Shown piece by piece: positions 73-36,548 of a DNA stretch of 39,712 nt. The position numbers and the translations under genes are program-made. The notes under the pieces were generated by a model. That model did not search any database, had not been told where the DNA came from, and saw only the letters and a list, made by a program, of their open reading frames with translations. Position 1 is the first letter of the stretch. The number at the start of each line of letters is the position of its first letter. Source of the stretch: a virus (lineage: Duplodnaviria > Heunggongvirae > Uroviricota > Caudoviricetes); the IMG/VR virus record IMGVR_UViG_2778261706_000022; one strand, 5' to 3'.

Positions 73-702
73 ATGAACACTTCACCGGTGCGAATGGATG
101 ATTTACCGCTTAACCGTTTTCACTGTCGAATTGCTGCGCTCACTTTCGGCGCACACCTGACCGACGGTTATGTTCTCGGCGTCATTGGTTACGCCATTAT
201 TCAACTTACGCCCGCCATGCAACTGACGCCGTTTATGGCGGGAATGATCGGCGGCTCGGCGCACCTTGGTTTGTTTCTTGGCAGCCTGGTTCTTGGGTGG
301 ATCTCCGACCATATTGGTCGGCAAAAAATCTTCACCTTCAGCTTTTTGCTGATTACGCTCGCTTCGTTCTTGCAATTTTTTGCCACCACGCCAGAGCATC
401 TTATTGGACTGCGCATTTTGATCGGCATTGGTCTGGGAGGCGATTACTCAGTAGGTCACACCTTGCTGGCTGAATTTTCCCCGCGCCGCCATCGCGGTGT
501 TTTGCTGGGCGCATTCAGCGTGGTGTGGACCGTAGGCTATGTGTTGGCAAGTATTGCCGGACATCACTTTATTTCCGAAAACCCGGAGGCCTGGCGCTGG
601 CTGCTGGCATCGGCAGCTCTGCCCGCGTTGTTGATTACGTTATTACGCTGGGGAACGCCAGAATCGCCACGCTGGCTACTTATAGCGCGGCGATTTTTTT
701 GA
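73..702 (+). pseudogene. MFS-family transporter gene, 5' portion only, interrupted by prophage insertion
   Basis: Translation has MFS/sugar-porter signatures (GxxxDxxGRQ-like loop, PESPRW motif). ATG at 73 follows a GAAGGGG Shine-Dalgarno. The frame ends in a TGA at 700-702 that coincides with the first prophage terminal repeat, and the protein is far shorter than a 12-TM transporter. Confidence 0.6.
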
Positions 703-764
703 TACCGATTTGCATTTCATTTGATACCGCTGAAAAACGCCGATACGCAACTTATTTGATACTA
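698..764. repeat. Prophage right-end terminal repeats (candidate transposase binding sites)
   Basis: TTTGATACCG at 698-707 and 720-729, TTTGATACTA at 755-764, a further GATAC at 742-746, and a GAAAAACGC motif at 732-740. Element probably begins with TG at 700-701. Confidence 0.45.
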
Positions 765-808
765 AATCGGCGCTTTTCTTTTGAGTTTTAGAATGAGTTT
801 TTAAGCGC

Positions 809-1546
809 TCATTCACTCTCTTTCAAACCAGTTTTAACTGTTTGTGGTTTTGGGTAAGGCTGGACTTTGAATAGCTTTGTGTTGAGGCGTTTTCTGGCCC
901 TCTTGTTCAGAAACCGGATGTAACGAAACTGTCGGAACTTATGAACACTGGCTCTGTCAATATTAGCCCTCAGATGTTCACCTCGTTGTCCGCCTCGTTT
1001 AATGGCATTCCTGCAAATCTCGTGATACCACTCGCCATCAAGTTCATAGAATATTGATTCATGGCTGCCTACATAATCAAAATTGCTTGCCTGATACACG
1101 ACACCAAGACAGCCACAACGCTCATCTGCAAACGACTGAACCCACTGTACCTGCGGATAAAGCTGCCTGATTAGCTTGAGCGCGTAACTGATTGCCCTTG
1201 ATTCGGAGTTTCTCGGCATACAGTCATGCAGCCATAGCCGGTTAAGCTCCATATATTCTCGGTTCTGCGTACCCGTTACGACGCGTGCACCACTGTTTGG
1301 GTTAAGGGCGTAACCCCATTGCATTACGCCAACAAGTTCCCGTTCTGAAAATATGCCCAGATGAAGGTAGGAGTTATTTACGAAACGGTGGCTGTAATGT
1401 TTATTGACGATGACCAGTCTGGCCAGCCAGCAACTTATTGTCTCAACCCGCAACTCACGGGAGCCATAACCAACGATATTGTCGTTATAGCGAATAAGTT
1501 CAGGCGTGCTGATGATTCGGGATGTGACTTGCTTTCTGTTCCCCAC
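809..1546 (-). CDS. mom: Mom-like DNA modification protein
   Basis: Terminal gene of the prophage, overlapped at its 5' end by a Com-like zinc-finger ORF as in Mu com-mom. Start is a GTG at 1546. Identity is by position and the com overlap, not by recalled Mom sequence. Confidence 0.6.
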
Positions 1547-1700
1547 GACAGGATTTCCTTGTGTATGTGGGGTGCTCTGTGGCGCTCGGAGATGTGATTT
1601 GATTGAGGGTTTTACAGCGCGGACATTTTACTTCCAGATAACTGAAACTGGCCCGTGCCAGTAGCTTATTGCAGTGTCGGCACCGTATGTTTCGATACAT
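1500..1700 (-). CDS. com: Com-like zinc-finger translational activator
   Basis: Translation [14 protein letters not shown]...CPRCK carries the CxxC...CxxC zinc finger of Mu Com. ATG at 1700 is preceded by AGGAGG. ORF overlaps the mom start. Confidence 0.7.
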
Positions 1701-1739
1701 GACCGCATAACCTCCTGCTTTGTTGTTGATGCCTTTCTC

Positions 1740-1775
1740 ATGCAATCGATCGACAAAAACGATCGATTCGATTTG
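1740..1775 (-). promoter_or_regulatory. Candidate mom-operon control region with clustered Dam (GATC) sites
   Basis: GATC at 1748-1751 and 1761-1764 inside repeated TCGATCGA motifs, about 50-75 bp upstream of com. Confidence 0.4.
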
Positions 1776-1814
1776 TTTAATTGATACAACAAATAGATTG
1801 AAAAGTCATCAACA

Positions 1815-2279
1815 ATGATTCAGGGAGGTGATTATTTACTTAAAGAAAACGAAGAGTTAGGTGGTGAAAACGATCATAAAATGATCATTTTATTGACTTT
1901 TTATACAGTGAAGGTAGGATCACGCGTATATGTAGTATGTTTCAAATCAACAGGATACTACATAAAAGTGAAACCCAGCATAGCTGGAACTATGCTGGGT
2001 CAATCTGTAAAAACTTGCATCAATGCTTTACTTCGAGCTCGTGGCGTATCCTATGATATTCCCCGGTCTCCTGTAAAGCAGAGATGCATAAAAAGGAGAT
2101 CTTTATCATGGATGAAAGAGCCTGTTTGCCCTGCCTGTAAGACTCCCTTACAGCTCATCTATCGCCGTTCTCGATCTCAAAATGGCAAGACATACAAACC
2201 CAAAAATGCTTCCTGTTTCAGGATGCTGATATGTCCTGCCTGTTCTCCCAGGAGGGAAAATACACAAAACGTGCATTAA
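1815..2279 (+). CDS. Hypothetical protein with C-terminal CPAC...CPAC zinc-ribbon motif
   Basis: Only ORF in an AT-rich 570-bp gap and divergent from com. Two CPAC motifs in the translation. Start uncertain (internal ATG at 1881 possible). Confidence 0.3.
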   Translation: MIQGGDYLLKENEELGGENDHKMIILLTFYTVKVGSRVYVVCFKSTGYYIKVKPSIAGTMLGQSVKTCINALLRARGVSYDIPRSPVKQRCIKRRSLSWMKEPVCPACKTPLQLIYRRSRSQNGKTYKPKNASCFRMLICPACSPRRENTQNVH

Positions 2280-2317
2280 CAAACTCACCCGGCAGGGAAA
2301 CCTGCCGGTCGGTATTG

Positions 2318-2563
2318 TTACATCATAGTACCGTCAGTTCCGGGCTGAACCGGCTCTGGTTGCTCTACGGGTTGAGGATCATTTTCCGTGCTGTTTTCAG
2401 CCGGAGAACGGCCAACCATTCGGGCCAGCACTTCATCAACATATGCGTCGATTTGTGCCTCAAAATCCTTGCGAACCTGCGCCTTCAGCACGCGGTTCAC
2501 TTCTTCAGAATAAAGTGCCTGTTTGACAAGCTCTTCAGTAACCGTGCCTTTAATCTCTGGCAT
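2318..2563 (-). CDS. Hypothetical small acidic protein (81 aa)
   Basis: AAGGAG Shine-Dalgarno 8 nt upstream of the ATG. Helical N-terminus with a Pro/Glu-rich tail. Confidence 0.5.
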   Translation of the reverse strand: MPEIKGTVTEELVKQALYSEEVNRVLKAQVRKDFEAQIDAYVDEVLARMVGRSPAENSTENDPQPVEQPEPVQPGTDGTMM

Positions 2564-2598
2564 GAATATTCTCCTTTTGCAGGTATATTGCCCCGTTA

Positions 2599-2781
2599 TC
2601 AGAGCGGGGTCGGGTCGTTTGGGGATGACGGTGCCTGTGCTGTTTTACTGAGTTTTTCAGCTGCCGCATCATCAATTTTACGGCGAATATAATTTCTGAT
2701 GACCTTATAACCACCGCTCACCAGATATAACGCACTGACCACAGCGCAGAAATAAAGCAGCATTGTATGAACGAATGTCAT
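2599..2781 (-). CDS. Hypothetical small membrane protein (60 aa, one predicted TM helix)
   Basis: Hydrophobic stretch LLYFCAVVSALYLV. Upstream AAAGGTAAGG. Confidence 0.4.
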   Translation of the reverse strand: MTFVHTMLLYFCAVVSALYLVSGGYKVIRNYIRRKIDDAAAEKLSKTAQAPSSPNDPTPL

Positions 2782-2849
2782 ATAACCTTACCTTTGATAT
2801 TGACTACATAATTCGTTATCGGGTAAAAACATCGAAGCGACTGATAACC

Positions 2850-2874
2850 ACTCCTTCGGGAGTATTTTTATTTT
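2850..2874 (+). terminator. Intrinsic terminator-like hairpin (ACTCC-TTCG-GGAGT + T-run)
   Basis: 5-bp stem with TTCG tetraloop at 2850-2863 followed by ATTTTTATTTT. Confidence 0.45.
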
Positions 2875-2893
2875 CCTTTATGGGTTAGGTAGC

Positions 2894-2932
2894 TCCCGCC
2901 AGCCATATCATGACCGGCGGGATTTTTTTATT
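2894..2932 (+). terminator. Intrinsic terminator-like hairpin (TCCCGCC...GGCGGGA + T7)
   Basis: 7-bp GC-rich stem at 2894-2900 / 2916-2922 followed by TTTTTTT. Overlaps the esterase stop codon on the opposite strand. Confidence 0.45.
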
Positions 2933-4967
2933 CTGTTACCGCTTTTTTCACTTCCACCACAATGCTGTCAATCAGCACCGGGTAAGTTGCATTTTTTGTG
3001 ATATCCGTTACGCGGAGTTTGTCCACCGGGAAAGTTCCTACTGGTGACTGCGTCAGGGTAAACGCGGCACCATCCTGACCATCAATAACCGGAATAACCT
3101 GAAGGCTGTTATTTCCTGCAAAACGGAAGGCCAGCGTATGCCATTCATTATCAAATGCACCAAAGGTTCCCAGTTTCTGGTTATTTGTTGCCACTTTTGC
3201 ATTGTGGTACATCACATTCAGGTCTTTTGCGTCTGTCTGGATGTAGAACGATGCCAGCAGATTATTCCCTGCATCCCCTGTCAGGGTGACACCCTGCGGC
3301 AGAGAGGAAACCGGCCAGTAAAGCCCCATGACATACTGGTTTGCCACCAGGTCGCCAGGTACTTTAAAACGACAACTGATTAAACCACCATTTTTCAGCA
3401 GTTCAGCACCAGTACCGGCATCATGATCCAGATACCAAGATGATTTACCTGTTTCCTTGGTCAGTTTCATTGCCTTACCACCTGTGCCTCCTGCATCACT
3501 GATAATTTCAGCTTTACCGCCAGCCGGCTCCCAGCCCTGGGCTTTCAGATTTCCTTCTGACTCACTGACACGATAAGACAGCAGTGTTGTGGTTACTGCT
3601 TCAGTTTCTGAAGGTGACGGCACTGGTGCTTCAGTTTCAGAAGATGGAACATCGGCTTTTACTGTGGTTCGCCCCGCATGAGTCAGAACTGCCGTGGCCA
3701 GACGGTCGGAAATAATCCCACGACGTGCCCATGAACTGAAATGGCTGGCCCGGTCCGCAGATGTCCAGGTGGCGGCACTGTTACGCCACGTTGAGCCGTA
3801 ATAACCAATGGATTCAATATCCGGGTCTTCTGCCGGATTGTTGGTGGGTACATTCGCGTCATTTTCATCTGTCATTAATGGAACGAAATGAATGTTTTTA
3901 TCTGTTTTGTTTTTGTAGCCGCCATAGATTGCCTGGTATGCCGGTTCATTTTTCTGTTTCCAGAAATACGTGGTATCGCCACAAATCCACGGAACGCCAG
4001 CAGCACTGCCACCGGTACACTGTTCCGCCTGTTCAGCCAGGTCTGCGCGGAATTTTTCCACCATCGCCAGAAACAGCGCGGAATGCTCCGTCGGCTTCGC
4101 ATCAATATCAAACTCGCCCTGCATCCACACCACAGCAAGCAGGCGGTTTTTCGGGTTCTTCGCCAGTGCCGCTTTTGTCCGGCTGATTAAGTCCTTATAC
4201 AGCGGCTTATCCACACCCCAGCGGGCTGAGTCCTCTGAAGCACCCGTGCTGTCACTGTACGTGCCGTCAGCACCCGCCGTGAATGCAGAACCACCACGGC
4301 AGCAGGGAACCAGCAGAATCCCCGCATCTGCCGGAATAAACGGCAGCAGTTTTTTGGCAATGTGAAGCCCCTGACCCACGGTGCCATATTGCCCTTTAGC
4401 CACATCCGCTTTCGGGTGATTTTTTCCACTCATATCCTGCACATCATGCAGACAGTGGTCGGCCAGAATGATGTCGTTATACTGACAGGCTTTACCTCCC
4501 GGCGTGACTGTACTGCGACGGGCTAACTGCATAATACGCGGTTCGGGGCGGTCATATGTCTCCGGCAGTGGCAGACCTTCACCGTAAGCCATACCGTTTG
4601 ACTGACCAGCAAGAACCACCACGTAATACCAGGAAGGGGAGCTGGAAGCAGTTTCATTTCCTGACGGACGGGTATGTGTTTCAGCATTATCCCAGTCTGA
4701 CGGTTCAGCAGTACCGGCAACATCAGCACTTAACGGAATGACCGCACCAATACCCGCTCCGGTAATTTCCACACTCGGATCACCGGATACTGGCCTTACC
4801 CACAGGCAATCCCGTGTATTAAAACTGATGAGACAGTCAGCAAATGTCATTCCTCCTTTTGTTTCGGCCGGAGGAAAGGGAGCCTCAAGAAATGCCGCTG
4901 TACCACCGGAAACTTTAACAGTAAAGTTTCCGGGCATTGATGATAGTTGAACCCATTTGGACGTCAT
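2928..4967 (-). CDS. SASA/SGNH-type carbohydrate esterase with C-terminal lectin-like domain (NanS-p-like sialate O-acetylesterase candidate)
   Basis: 679-aa ORF with VLAGQSNGMAYGEG and WMQGEFD motifs typical of the sialate O-acetylesterase (SASA) family, a Pro/Ser/Thr/Glu linker (SETEAPVPSPSETEA), and a C-terminal beta-rich domain. No signal peptide. Confidence 0.6.
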   Translation of the reverse strand: MTSKWVQLSSMPGNFTVKVSGGTAAFLEAPFPPAETKGGMTFADCLISFNTRDCLWVRPVSGDPSVEITGAGIGAVIPLSADVAGTAEPSDWDNAETHTRPSGNETASSSPSWYYVVVLAGQSNGMAYGEGLPLPETYDRPEPRIMQLARRSTVTPGGKACQYNDIILADHCLHDVQDMSGKNHPKADVAKGQYGTVGQGLHIAKKLLPFIPADAGILLVPCCRGGSAFTAGADGTYSDSTGASEDSARWGVDKPLYKDLISRTKAALAKNPKNRLLAVVWMQGEFDIDAKPTEHSALFLAMVEKFRADLAEQAEQCTGGSAAGVPWICGDTTYFWKQKNEPAYQAIYGGYKNKTDKNIHFVPLMTDENDANVPTNNPAEDPDIESIGYYGSTWRNSAATWTSADRASHFSSWARRGIISDRLATAVLTHAGRTTVKADVPSSETEAPVPSPSETEAVTTTLLSYRVSESEGNLKAQGWEPAGGKAEIISDAGGTGGKAMKLTKETGKSSWYLDHDAGTGAELLKNGGLISCRFKVPGDLVANQYVMGLYWPVSSLPQGVTLTGDAGNNLLASFYIQTDAKDLNVMYHNAKVATNNQKLGTFGAFDNEWHTLAFRFAGNNSLQVIPVIDGQDGAAFTLTQSPVGTFPVDKLRVTDITKNATYPVLIDSIVVEVKKAVTE

Positions 4968-5066
4968 AATAATCAGCCTGTTCCTGAATAAACTGAATTA
5001 TCATATCCACAGACCGATAAACGCCATTTTGCGTTAATTCAGTAAAGGCCCAACAAAGGGAGCGTC

Positions 5067-5627
5067 TTATTTTTCCGAAACGCTCGCAGGATAATAACGA
5101 TAAAGGGTTGAAAGGCCGATATCAAAAATAAGTGCCACCTGTCTTCGACTGACACCCCCGGCCAGTAAACGCCCGACCTGCTCGTATTGTTCCTGCGTGA
5201 GACGACGGGGTCTGCCGCCGGTTCGTCCCCTTTCACGGGCAGCTGCAAGACCAGCCCGTGTCCGTTCGACAATTAATTCACGCTCCATTTCTGCCAGCGC
5301 ACCCATTATGTGAAAAAAGAAGCGCCCCATGGGGGTTGACGTATCAATGTTGTCAGTAAGACTACGAAAATTTATCCCCTGTTGCTGTAATTCATCTGTC
5401 AGCGCAACAAGGTGGCGCATACTGCGCCCCAGCCTGTCCAGTTTCCAGACCATCAGTGTGTCACCGGGTTTTAGTTTCTTCAGTGCCCGCTTCAGTCCCG
5501 GCCGCTGTGTCGTTTTACCACTCATTTTATCTTCAAAAATCTGCTCACATCCTGCACATTCCAGCGCATTTCTTTGTAAACCTGTGTTCTGGTCATTTGT
5601 TGATACGCGTATATAGCCAATCAGCAT
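5067..5627 (-). CDS. gin: Serine DNA invertase (Gin/Pin/Hin/Cin family)
   Basis: Translation MLIGYIRVSTNDQNTGLQRNALECAGCEQIFEDK...FRSLTDNIDTSTPMGRFFFHIMGALAEMERELIVERT closely matches my recollection of Mu Gin. Adjacent to an invertible segment. Confidence 0.9.
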   Translation of the reverse strand: MLIGYIRVSTNDQNTGLQRNALECAGCEQIFEDKMSGKTTQRPGLKRALKKLKPGDTLMVWKLDRLGRSMRHLVALTDELQQQGINFRSLTDNIDTSTPMGRFFFHIMGALAEMERELIVERTRAGLAAARERGRTGGRPRRLTQEQYEQVGRLLAGGVSRRQVALIFDIGLSTLYRYYPASVSEK

Positions 5628-5681
5628 GTATTTACCTTCCTTAAAAAGAGGTGGAAAGGCCTTTTAAAGCAGATATACGGC

Positions 5682-5707
5682 ATCCCTGAAACCTCGGTTT
5701 ACGGGAT
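5682..5707. repeat. gix-like recombination site (gin-proximal)
   Basis: ATCCCTGAAACC-TC-GGTTTACGGGAT: imperfect 12-bp inverted half-sites around a central dinucleotide, resembling gix/hix/cix sites. Confidence 0.6.
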
Positions 5708-35619: not shown

Positions 35620-36548
35620 ACCTGTGAGAGTAATTCAGGGTTGGTATAAACCTCTTTAAAGGCCGCATTAATATGTTTTTCTGTCAGCGCCGCGCCTTCA
35701 CCGCTGGCGGTGAGCCACGCCTGGTTAAGCGTATGTGTCAGAACGCGTAACGCTCCCGGCTTTTCAGCGATAGCCTGCATGACGGCCAGCTCGGCCTCAC
35801 CACTGATCCCCCACGCCCTGGCAATGGCCAGCACATCCGCCTTTTTGGCCTTGCGAAGTTGTTTTGTACGGGCAAGACGGCTGAACAGGCGCGATAAATC
35901 ATCAAAGGCGCGGCGTCCACCTTTAAACAATCCGCGCGGGTTACCAATAAGCACCATCCCGATCCCCGTGGCGTCCTGAATTGCCCGGAGTTGCTCCAGA
36001 CCGTCAATACCCAGATGATCCGCCTCATCCACAATCACCAGTCCACGCGTTCCCATCAGGCGACGGCGGATGGCGCGGGATAATGCCCCTTTGTTCGCGC
36101 GGGTGTAATCAATCCCCAGCGCATCGGCCAGCTCCAGCAGACACTCCGTGACGCTGGAGTGCGCGGGTGACAGGGTGATCATCCAGGTGTTTGGTTGCTC
36201 CTGGCAGTAATTACGGGCAGTGGCCGTTTTACCCACACCCGGTACGCCCACAATAACGTTAATACAGCCCATCAGACGAACCGCCTGAAACAGTGCGCGC
36301 AGCTCCTGGACTGTCTGCGTTTCCACAAACTGCGGCGGTTCCGGCAGTGCGCTTTGTTTATTCCAGTTTTCATACCAGGAACGCAGGGAAGCAGCCACAG
36401 CGGCGTTATCGCCTTTATATTTCCCCTTGCGGAAAGCCGATAATGTGCCGTCGGAAATTCCCGCCTCTCTGGCGATGGCATACTGCGTCAGTACGCCGCC
36501 ATCAATAAGTTCATCAATGGTCTTGATTACATCGTTAATATCAGTCAT
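35616..36548 (-). CDS. B: Transposition ATPase / target DNA activator B (AAA+)
   Basis: Walker A GVPGVGKT and Walker B LVIVDEADH motifs, with an N-terminal HTH-like region. Directly downstream of the transposase. Confidence 0.85.
   Translation of the reverse strand: MTDINDVIKTIDELIDGGVLTQYAIAREAGISDGTLSAFRKGKYKGDNAAVAASLRSWYENWNKQSALPEPPQFVETQTVQELRALFQAVRLMGCINVIVGVPGVGKTATARNYCQEQPNTWMITLSPAHSSVTECLLELADALGIDYTRANKGALSRAIRRRLMGTRGLVIVDEADHLGIDGLEQLRAIQDATGIGMVLIGNPRGLFKGGRRAFDDLSRLFSRLARTKQLRKAKKADVLAIARAWGISGEAELAVMQAIAEKPGALRVLTHTLNQAWLTASGEGAALTEKHINAAFKEVYTNPELLSQV

Follow-up and report, generated by a model that had tools for sequence, protein, structure and literature searches.

In phage Mu, the invertase gene gin ends at position 35673 and com starts at position 35768, which leaves a spacer of only 94 bp with no gene in it. 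In the virus studied here, for which the whole stretch of 39,712 nucleotides that was analysed (IMG/VR record IMGVR_UViG_2778261706_000022) is called the window, about 3.37 kb separate the gin stop (5067) from the com start (1700). Since the spacer of Mu is so short, this is a real insert relative to Mu, and the question is what the inserted genes are, where they come from and whom they serve. The phage itself belongs to the Mu-like transposable phages, as transposases A and B, Gam, a Mor/C-type activator and Mu-type head and baseplate genes are annotated by PGAP in the identical prophage of strain PA20, while an invertible fibre segment with gin, com-mom at the right end and varied chromosomal insertion sites are further Mu-like traits. 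The right end of the prophage was placed at window position 681 from the annotated insertion boundary of one surveyed locus (L001) and from the alignment with Sakai Sp18. The answer that we favour, with moderate confidence as a whole, is that a lambdoid gene cassette has settled between gin and com of a Mu-like prophage of pathogenic E. coli (Sp18 type) and that its sialate esterase has had the N-terminal domain swapped; the activity of the enzyme, the direction of transfer and the attachment to the particle are each held at the strength given below.

The slot is bordered upstream by the gin-type DNA invertase gene (5067..5627, minus strand; Pfam Resolvase, E 1.4e-51, plus HTH_7; 75% identity to Mu Gin) and downstream by com (1500..1700, minus strand; Pfam Zn_ribbon_Com, E 3.2e-12; a 66-aa CDS in PGAP), followed by mom (809..1546, minus strand; Pfam Mom, E 4e-77; 79% identity to Mu Mom). 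The order gin-com-mom, the invertible tail-fibre segment upstream and a GATC-rich region upstream of com are shared with Mu, D108 and SfMu, and com, like its two neighbours, is homologous to that of Mu, whose 94 bp nevertheless contrast with four genes here. Three of these had been listed in a preliminary description of the DNA, and all lie on the minus strand: a 679-aa esterase (2928-4967), a 60-aa ORF (2599-2781) and an 81-aa ORF (2318-2563). A fourth, orf154 (154 aa, 1815..2279, plus strand), found in the ORF list and in PGAP, had been missed and constitutes further cargo in the variable slot. The three-gene cassette is closed by a terminator-like hairpin (ccggcagg-tttc-cctgccgg, then a GU/U-rich tail; 2278..2308, minus strand; RNA fold -22.1 kcal/mol). 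The view that this block is cargo is sustained by other Mu-like prophages, among which gene content at this position differs: every surveyed locus with a Mom at least 97% identical and reaching far enough upstream carries the cassette, and it is absent both from Mu and from every surveyed locus with a Mom 62-86% identical, where the gin-mom distance, if gin is present, is 119-455 bp and most often 279 bp.

As sequence, the block is already known. Positions 681-5700 are 99.94% identical to ECs_4992-4998 of Sp18 in E. coli O157:H7 Sakai, the cargo being ECs_4993-4996, all four genes of which are annotated merely as hypothetical proteins. The block is present in 167 of 5,426 complete E. coli genomes, the exact esterase protein occurs on at least 999 public contigs under the NCBI name 'sialate O-acetylesterase', and the cassette is 100% identical in strain FRIK804. 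Sp18 and Phi804-3, the FRIK804 prophage, are thus essentially the same element at another insertion site: an MFS-transporter gene here, sorM in Sakai, bcsA in PA20 and prpD/prpE in FRIK804 (PMC7430833). No paper dealing with DUF6645, with ECs4993-4996 or with the occurrence of nanS-p or sialate esterases in Mu-like phages was found in a literature search. The new point is the exchange of the N-terminal domain.

What kind of enzyme does the large gene encode? The catalytic domain, of the SGNH/SASA family and NanS type, comprises aa 113-430 (3678..4631, minus strand). Pfam SASA (PF03629) matches aa 116-312 with 46.0 bits (gathering score 24.8; E 6.5e-12), and the structure of chromosomal NanS (YjhS, PDB 3pt5) is matched over aa 104-428 with E 1.9e-118. 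The motifs GQSN (121-124, with the nucleophile serine), CCRGGS (222), WMQGE (281) and RASH (406-409) are kept and align with the matching residues of 3pt5; the last is the SGNH block IV as defined for NanS-p, RSSH or RASH in NanS and NanS-p (PMC10462455). The C-terminal domain, a lectin-like jelly-roll (DUF6645; aa 459-679 and stop, 2928..3593, minus strand), matches the corresponding domain of NanS-p (6yp6) over aa 459-674 with E 1e-111 and Pfam PF20350 over aa 524-642 with E 2.4e-69. Moreover, the proposed sugar-binding site retains its four aromatic residues as Y545, Y550, Y575 and F646, equivalent to Y510, Y515, Y540 and F611 of vb_24B_21 (PMC10462455). Between the two domains lies a linker rich in Pro, Ser, Thr and Glu (aa 431-458, 3594..3677, minus strand; VKADVPSSETEAPVPSPSETEAV), which is variable and gapped in the alignment with relatives. 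As the full-length AlphaFold model, built on a 7-sequence alignment, was poor (pLDDT 58), solved structures of close homologues were used instead.

Over aa ~100-679, the esterase is 74-81% identical in protein and 78-81% in nucleotides to the NanS-p enzymes of lambdoid phages with and without Stx (933W L0105/z1466; phi24B vb_24B_21/gp84), with which it shares the SGNH blocks and the aromatic sugar-site residues. By sequence, the body is thus a NanS-p-type sialate 9-O-acetylesterase whose catalytic and lectin-like domains are intact and conserved. Chromosomal NanS has a homologous catalytic domain, with the GQSN serine and the SSHF histidine conserved in the alignment, but is a single-domain protein of ~330 aa in the nan regulon, without the N-terminal phage-type and C-terminal lectin-like domains. 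Given the homology to NanS and NanS-p, Ser123 (GQSN) and His409 (RASH) very probably remove the 9-O-acetyl group from Neu5,9Ac2 on mucin-type sialoglycans, the C-terminal domain acting as a carbohydrate-binding module; in fact, NanS-p enzymes have been found experimentally to be active on Neu5,9Ac2 and mucin (PMC8065619). The preliminary description, which had read the protein as a SASA-family esterase with a lectin-like C-terminus resembling the sialate O-acetylesterases of lambdoid prophages of enterohaemorrhagic E. coli, was right at its core: a significant SASA/SGNH match and the motifs with the catalytic serine and histidine are both there. NCBIfam models gave zero matches. A defence role for the cargo was considered and rejected, as PADLOC matched 0 families at E <= 0.01 with the four cargo proteins.

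The genes that accompany the esterase point to its origin. The 60-aa product is a DUF1378 protein (2599..2781, minus strand; PF07125, 131.5 bits with E 1.2e-38 over all 59 profile positions; phrog_494) that spans the membrane with one helix (strongly hydrophobic at aa 3-21; Kyte-Doolittle 2.0); its pI is 9.3. The 81-aa product is a DUF826 protein (2318..2563, minus strand; PF05696, 56.7 bits with a gathering score of 25, E 2.8e-15; phrog_311) with a pI of 4.3. A membrane protein and an acidic protein had indeed been anticipated, and it was their supposed status as a separate module that failed, since lambdoid phages carry members of both families, in this order, downstream of nanS-p (PMC10462455). 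In PhiR12_2, the esterase is followed by a 60-aa DUF1378 ORF, DUF826 and then holin S, and in Stx2 phage 1717 a DUF1378 ORF comes next after nanS-p. The DUF1378 protein is 53-54% identical to the post-nanS-p ORF in both phages, and the DUF826 protein is 45% identical to the PhiR12_2 ORF between DUF1378 and holin S. This relationship is visible solely at the protein level; when the small-ORF region was compared with phages at the nucleotide level, only two records matched, both with an inserted Mu-like phage. In addition, 346 of the 348 phage records with an esterase match are of lambdoid type, matching only from ~aa 65-110 on. On these sequence comparisons, esterase, DUF1378 and DUF826 form a three-gene cassette whose natural home is the lambdoid late operon, between Q/stx and holin S, and which was probably transferred from lambdoid phages to the Mu-like lineage. 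The fourth cargo gene, orf154, encodes a basic protein with two CPxC motifs and has a GC content of 0.39; it corresponds to WP_115801860 in PGAP and to ECs_4996 in Sakai (phrog_26524, E 2.5e-52), has homologues only in E. coli and is frameshifted in L001.

The esterase thus agrees with NanS-p in its catalytic and C-terminal domains and departs from it in two respects. One is the location, between gin and com of a transposable phage of the Mu type and not in the lambdoid Q-S late region; the other is the N-terminus. The DUF1737 domain (PF08410), for which the preliminary description had proposed a search, gave no Pfam match in the esterase at E <= 0.1. In its place in the alignment with relatives stands an unrelated sequence, so that the N-terminal ~112 aa are of a different kind, specific to the Mu-like lineage: an all-beta domain of ~80 aa (aa 1-80, 4728..4967, minus strand), modelled confidently by AlphaFold as a beta-barrel, and a disordered Ser/Thr/Pro-rich linker, longer than that of NanS-p (aa 81-112, 4632..4727, minus strand; pLDDT <50 for aa 80-110), which ends in SSSPSWYY. 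Among 1.84e9 representatives and 5.8e9 clusters, the domain was found solely on esterases that are encoded by Mu-like prophages, the hosts being Escherichia, Shigella and Salmonella. On the post-gin esterases of such prophages in other E. coli, in Shigella sonnei and in Salmonella, it recurs at 61% and 29% identity. The small ORFs preceding the Salmonella esterase (L011) were checked as possible relatives and proved unrelated.

The mosaic structure of the locus supports an exchange at this domain. Lambdoid nucleotide homology begins at window 4622-4629, i.e. at the domain boundary, and identity to one related locus (L038) falls at 4621 from at least 95% to ~70%. In five loci (L036-38, L041, L045), the N-terminal domain is 97-98% and DUF826 95-99% identical, while the body is 53-56% and DUF1378 57-59% identical, with breakpoints at window 4621 and 2571. 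By sequence comparison, the N-terminal domain stays with the Mu backbone whereas the enzyme body and DUF1378 swap between alleles. The DUF1737 domain of lambdoid NanS-p has here given way to the unrelated beta-barrel and flexible linker. A breakpoint at the domain boundary would also be expected from homology-dependent recombination alone, since the homology to lambdoid donors begins only with the catalytic domain.

Such junctions might be the scars of a decaying passenger, i.e. a non-functional remnant of an illegitimate recombination between a lambdoid and a Mu-like prophage, whose N-terminal 112 aa are a fortuitous in-frame fusion. In favour of this, hybrid lambdoid/Mu-like junctions lie inside the esterase gene in draft genomes (L013, L055), and the neighbouring orf154 is frameshifted in some copies. 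Nevertheless, the full-length ORF is intact on the contigs and in the complete genomes counted above, with all catalytic motifs kept; dN/dS is 0.03-0.23 in every domain and, at 0.03-0.10 in the N-terminal domain, points to purifying selection there too; and a Mu-like prophage of Salmonella still has this domain, at 29% identity. A decaying remnant is therefore extremely improbable and already close to refuted.

If the N-terminal domain is maintained, what does it do? In phi24B, the capsid-binding part of gp84 is DUF1737, a hexamer reported in 2026 to decorate the capsid at the hexon centres (bioRxiv 10.64898/2026.04.10.717836). Decoration of exactly this type is not what is found here, as DUF1737 is missing; by analogy, the replacement domain would fit the same enzyme payload to a Mu-type particle. 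We accordingly put forward, as a tentative suggestion to which we give somewhat less than an even chance, that the domain might be a particle anchor for Mu-type virions, on capsid hexon, tail or fibre. In cryo-EM, the capsid of Mu proper is without cement proteins and no decoration protein has been assigned to it (PMC11915804), which means that Mu-type capsids need none.

An attachment to tail or fibre would also suit an enzyme that benefits the phage on the bacterial surface, stripping O-acetyl groups from O-antigen, capsule (e.g. O-acetylated polysialic acid) or surface glycans, and thereby exposing a receptor during adsorption or blocking re-adsorption of progeny. The gene comes directly after the tail-fibre invertible segment and gin, and its presumed layout of N-terminal anchor, flexible linker, enzyme and sugar-binding domain is the usual one of tail-associated depolymerases. 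Such a role has been proposed for NanS-p without evidence (PMC8065619). The homologous phi24B enzyme is, however, attached to the capsid and not to the tail (bioRxiv 10.64898/2026.04.10.717836), the catalytic domain matches the sialate-specific NanS, the NanS-p enzymes tested act on host mucin sialic acids, and the PM2 match was no better than those to unrelated cupins. A bacterial-surface role is thus improbable.

The 99-bp spacer between gin and the esterase (4968..5066, minus strand) contains no convincing terminator, either in sequence or in RNA fold, and the esterase may be co-transcribed with gin or have its own promoter. With a home in the gin-com spacer instead of the lambdoid Q-S late region, promoter control cannot be pR'/Q. 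A Mu C-dependent late promoter was sought as a candidate, and the C-box of Mu (TTAT-N6-ATAA) has zero matches anywhere in the window. Promoter-like sites in a sigma-70 scan did not exceed the expectation from shuffled sequence, and no motif shared upstream of the lysis, head, tail, com and esterase genes was seen by eye. Directly 3' of the esterase stop, a 13-bp GC-rich hairpin (2894..2922, strand unassigned; RNA fold -23.2 kcal/mol) is preceded by A7 on the minus strand; in the plus-strand reading the hairpin is followed by T7, and by its sequence it would be a terminator for antisense transcription. A GATC-rich palindrome upstream of com (1744..1768, strand unassigned; hairpin reported) is, by comparison with the Mu sequence, the counterpart of the Dam-site region upstream of Pmom, so that the mom control region stays beside com.

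The cassette could also be a pure lysogenic-conversion moron, with esterase made from the prophage by read-through from constitutively expressed gin or by the lysing fraction of cells, the lysogen feeding on 9-O-acetylated sialic acids and the N-terminal domain serving not as a virion anchor but as an extra carbohydrate-binding, oligomerisation or stability domain. NanS-p gives lysogens growth on Neu5,9Ac2 and de-O-acetylates mucin glycans (PMC8065619), the cassette stands apart from the structural genes and is closed by a terminator-like hairpin of its own, and the weak fold neighbours of the N-terminal domain (cupin, jelly-roll and PA14-like barrels) are partly sugar-binding. Furthermore, the number of matching places per STEC genome has a median of 3 and reaches 12, in keeping with a role in dosage or metabolism. 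On the other hand, a domain that served sugar binding or stability in general should not be restricted to esterases of Mu-like prophages, as this one is, and the lambdoid versions are reported to have a capsid anchor at exactly this position. In addition, no signal peptide was found in the esterase, so that the substrate would be reached only upon cell lysis or on the virion, and a live lysogen cannot export the enzyme. We regard this purely lysogenic explanation as possible but rather doubtful.

The literature treats NanS-p as accessory genes of lambdoid Stx phages, which may serve either the lysogen, through mucin foraging, or the phage. In the reading that we prefer, the same cassette has been captured by a completely different type of phage, which kept the enzyme and sugar-binding domains and exchanged the one reported to bind the lambdoid capsid, as would be expected if it matters that the enzyme is attached to the particle. 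Should the N-terminal domain be merely a stabilising appendage, the finding would amount to an ordinary moron transfer. One further esterase copy, with a different control circuit, is added to the nanS-p dosage of many STEC strains, and the shared cassette gives Mu-like and lambdoid prophages a stretch of homology at which they may recombine. If the domain is indeed an anchor, one mucin-sialic-acid esterase payload would be carried on two unrelated virion architectures, the T=9 podovirus phi24B, by means of DUF1737, and a Mu-type myovirus; the display on virions of an enzyme that modifies host glycans would then be a selected and portable trait, with anchor domains as plug-in adaptors.

The Mu-like prophage lies on the minus strand of the window, and its right end, at 681, falls within a host ORF resembling an MFS transporter (1-702). 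Outward from the invertible tail-fibre segment come gin (5067-5627), the 679-aa esterase ORF (2928-4967), a 60-aa ORF (2599-2781) and an 81-aa ORF (2318-2563), all on the minus strand, followed by the 154-aa orf154 on the plus strand (1815-2279) and by com (1500-1700) and mom (809-1546), again on the minus strand. Since the end of gin and the start of com lie at 35673 and 35768 in phage Mu, the gin-com interval of the window holds about 3.37 kb of extra DNA. The ORFs, motifs and coordinates of the preliminary description were all correct and the three inserted ORFs that it listed stand, while orf154 had been overlooked. Subject to the corrections made here, the evidence supports its main reading. 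As regards its proposal that the block is cargo, 101 loci were retrieved by Mom homology. Where Mom was at least 97% identical, the cassette was present in every locus reaching far enough upstream, with 3.4-3.8 kb from gin end to mom start, while no cassette was found in the surveyed loci with Mom 62-86% identical, in which gin, where present, lay 119-455 bp from mom (279 bp being the commonest distance). One sublineage thus has an occupied slot and classical Mu-type phages an empty one, which supports the cargo proposal, and the cassette is confined to one Mu-like lineage. Near-identical prophages were found in sorM (Sakai), in bcsA (PA20), between prpD and prpE (FRIK804) and inside the Stx phages LC727881 and LC727895, a variety of insertion sites consistent with active transposition.

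Several comparisons established what the enzyme domains are and that they are intact. The 679-aa protein matched the Pfam families SASA (E 6.5e-12, aa 116-312) and DUF6645 (E 2.4e-69, aa 524-642) and, among solved structures, E. coli NanS/YjhS over aa 104-428 (3pt5, E 1.9e-118) and the crystallised NanS-p C-terminal domain over aa 459-674 (6yp6, E 1e-111). The SGNH blocks are GQSN-121, CCRGGS-222, WMQGE-281 and RASH-406, the RASH form of the last being shared with NanS-p, and the four aromatics proposed for sugar binding in vb_24B_21, the NanS-p of phage phi24B, are kept as Y545, Y550, Y575 and F646. Lambdoid Stx and non-Stx phages showed 78-81% nucleotide and 74-81% protein identity to the esterase. 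Judged from its sequence, the body of the protein is to be classed as a NanS-p. Ser123 and His409 would thus very probably remove the acetyl groups of 9-O-acetyl sialic acids in mucin-type glycans, and the C-terminal domain would serve as a carbohydrate-binding module. The enzyme itself is ordinary.

The N-terminal domain, by contrast with the body, has been swapped. DUF1737 stands at the start of lambdoid NanS-p. No Pfam match to this domain was obtained in the 679-aa protein, the lambdoid phage matches begin only at about aa 65-110, and in the protein alignment with lambdoid NanS-p residues 1 to about 112 were unrelated in sequence. The predicted model of this N-terminal domain is an all-beta barrel (pLDDT 76-90 over aa 1-70), followed by a disordered linker (aa 80-110). 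When 1.84 billion representative sequences and 5.8 billion clusters were searched, the domain was found only on esterase fragments of Escherichia, Shigella and Salmonella. Only 2 of the 348 phage records matching the esterase cover the N-terminus, both being Stx phages which carry an inserted Mu-like phage. Versions at 61-66% identity occur in other E. coli Mu-like prophages and in Shigella sonnei, on esterases whose genes come after the tail-fibre/gin region and precede DUF1378 and DUF826, and some of these E. coli prophages have com and a C5 methylase, and no mom. In the loci L003-L006 (e.g. L006 4367-5573), the same esterase cassette is followed by com and then by a C5 cytosine DNA methylase (PF00145), as against com-mom in the window; a different DNA-modification enzyme is therefore placed under seemingly the same Com-type control. 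In a Salmonella Mu-like prophage the domain is just 29% identical and is also found downstream of gin. Two small ORFs lie there between gin and the esterase (L011 9426-9910), of which the 58-aa one has a hydrophobic stretch at its C-terminus and the 87-aa one looks helix-turn-helix-like; considered as relatives of the domain, they proved unrelated to it or to anything in the window.

The dN/dS of the N-terminal domain was 0.029 (L003 against the Shigella Mu-like locus L008) and 0.10 (window against L038), values which indicate that purifying selection acts on it. With at least 999 contigs and 167 complete genomes carrying an intact esterase ORF, and with a low dN/dS, decay of the gene is essentially excluded. 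In phi24B, the DUF1737 of the esterase gp84 is reported to form hexamers on the central capsid hexons, and the enzyme to be processed (2026 preprint, bioRxiv 10.64898/2026.04.10.717836). By analogy, the new domain may re-target the esterase to the Mu-type particle, a reading put forward tentatively. In Mu proper, cryo-EM showed no cement proteins on the capsid (PMC11915804), and Mu is also without the esterase gene. The main rival is a plain lysogenic-conversion enzyme whose N-terminal domain has some other role, which is rather unlikely. That the enzyme acts on glycans of the bacterial surface in adsorption is improbable. For NanS-p enzymes, experiments have shown de-O-acetylation of Neu5,9Ac2 and of mucin glycans, and growth of lysogens on these by means of the enzymes (PMC8065619). 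No hydrophobic N-terminal segment was found in the esterase sequence, and exit from the cell would proceed solely by lysis or on the particle, as for NanS-p.

The two small ORFs belong with the esterase. The 60-aa protein is a DUF1378 member (E 1.2e-38) with a single transmembrane helix and a pI of 9.3, and the 81-aa protein a DUF826 member (E 2.8e-15) with a pI of 4.3. The lambdoid phage PhiR12_2 carries, in this order, Q, a DUF1737-esterase, a 60-aa ORF (54% identical), a DUF826 ORF (45% identical) and holin S, a DUF1378 homologue (53% identical) likewise follows nanS-p in Stx2 phage 1717, and DUF826 and DUF1378 ORFs have been noted between nanS-p and S (PMC10462455). The block thus amounts to three genes out of a lambdoid late region, and the suggestion that the small ORFs might form a separate module is not upheld, both accompanying the esterase in lambdoid phages too. 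Their fixed place right before the holin in those phages is a hint, and the sole clue, to their role. A terminator-like hairpin (2278-2308) ends the cassette. A 13-bp GC-rich hairpin (2894-2922) lies directly past the esterase stop, with A7 ahead of it on the minus strand; on the plus strand it is followed by T7, as in a canonical intrinsic terminator for antisense transcription, e.g. from orf154, and a second plus-strand terminator-like site is found at 2850-2873.

The cassette is itself a mosaic. In the related prophages L036-38, L041 and L045, identity to the window is split, with 97-98% for the N-terminal domain, 53-56% for the esterase body, 57-59% for DUF1378 and 95-99% for DUF826. In a sliding comparison with L038, nucleotide identity was at least 93% (mostly 95-100%) from gin to window position 4621, fell sharply past this point to about 70% and below, and returned to 100% at 2571, just ahead of the DUF826 start. 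The left breakpoint coincides with the onset of lambdoid homology (window about 4622-4629), at the linker/catalytic-domain junction between SSPSWYY and VV. The two breakpoints thus define the esterase body plus DUF1378 as an exchangeable unit, the N-terminal domain and DUF826 staying with the Mu backbone. Nevertheless, crossover with lambdoid donors is possible only in shared sequence, and therefore the breakpoint position alone is no proof of functional constraint. In L013 (P0065) and L055 (4540-8738), a lambdoid DUF1737 5' end is fused within the esterase gene to a body of the Mu-like type, with DUF1378, DUF826, (orf154), com and mom downstream. In L055, lambdoid DNA lies upstream (91% identity with Stx2 phage 1717), and the identity of this locus to the Shigella Mu-like locus L008 climbs to about 100% from position 5536. 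These junctions represent either lambdoid/Mu-like recombination via the shared cassette or draft-assembly chimeras.

The opposing orf154 (ECs_4996 in Sakai; GC 0.39, pI 9.9, two CPxC motifs near the C-terminus) has the DUF826 terminator on one side and the com control region on the other. It is matched by phrog_26524, its homologues occur only in E. coli, 135-aa variants among them, and the Mu-like phages inserted in LC727881 and LC727895 carry a frameshifted copy. Segment 2082-2289 is unconserved in related Mu-like prophages, which have other small opposite-strand ORFs in its place, and so the orf154 site looks like a second, variable moron slot.

As for expression, no terminator was seen between gin and the esterase, so that read-through from gin is possible, and a promoter scan gave nothing above chance. 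The Mu C-box (TTAT-N6-ATAA) has no occurrence anywhere in the window. A GATC-rich palindrome upstream of com (1744-1768) resembles the Dam-site region before Pmom in Mu (L009 5160-5215), and the C-activator box of Mu (ATTATgccccaATAA) is replaced. The late activator of this phage would probably recognise another site than that of Mu.

As sequence, the locus was already known. Over window 681-5700 the DNA is 99.94% identical to the right end of the Sp18 prophage in O157:H7 Sakai (ECs_4992-4998, annotated there as hypothetical proteins), and many STEC genomes share the cassette at 100% identity, among them FRIK804, in which it sits within the published Mu-like prophage Phi804-3 (PMC7430833). At NCBI the protein already goes by the name 'sialate O-acetylesterase' or 'DUF6645 domain-containing protein'. 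In a literature search of incomplete journal coverage, no report was found on a NanS-p-type esterase in a Mu-like phage, on the missing DUF1737 or on these locus tags. What is new is that a NanS-p cassette stands in another genomic and regulatory context and bears another N-terminal module, and this swap of the anchor domain offers a testable lead on the purpose of phage-borne sialate esterases.
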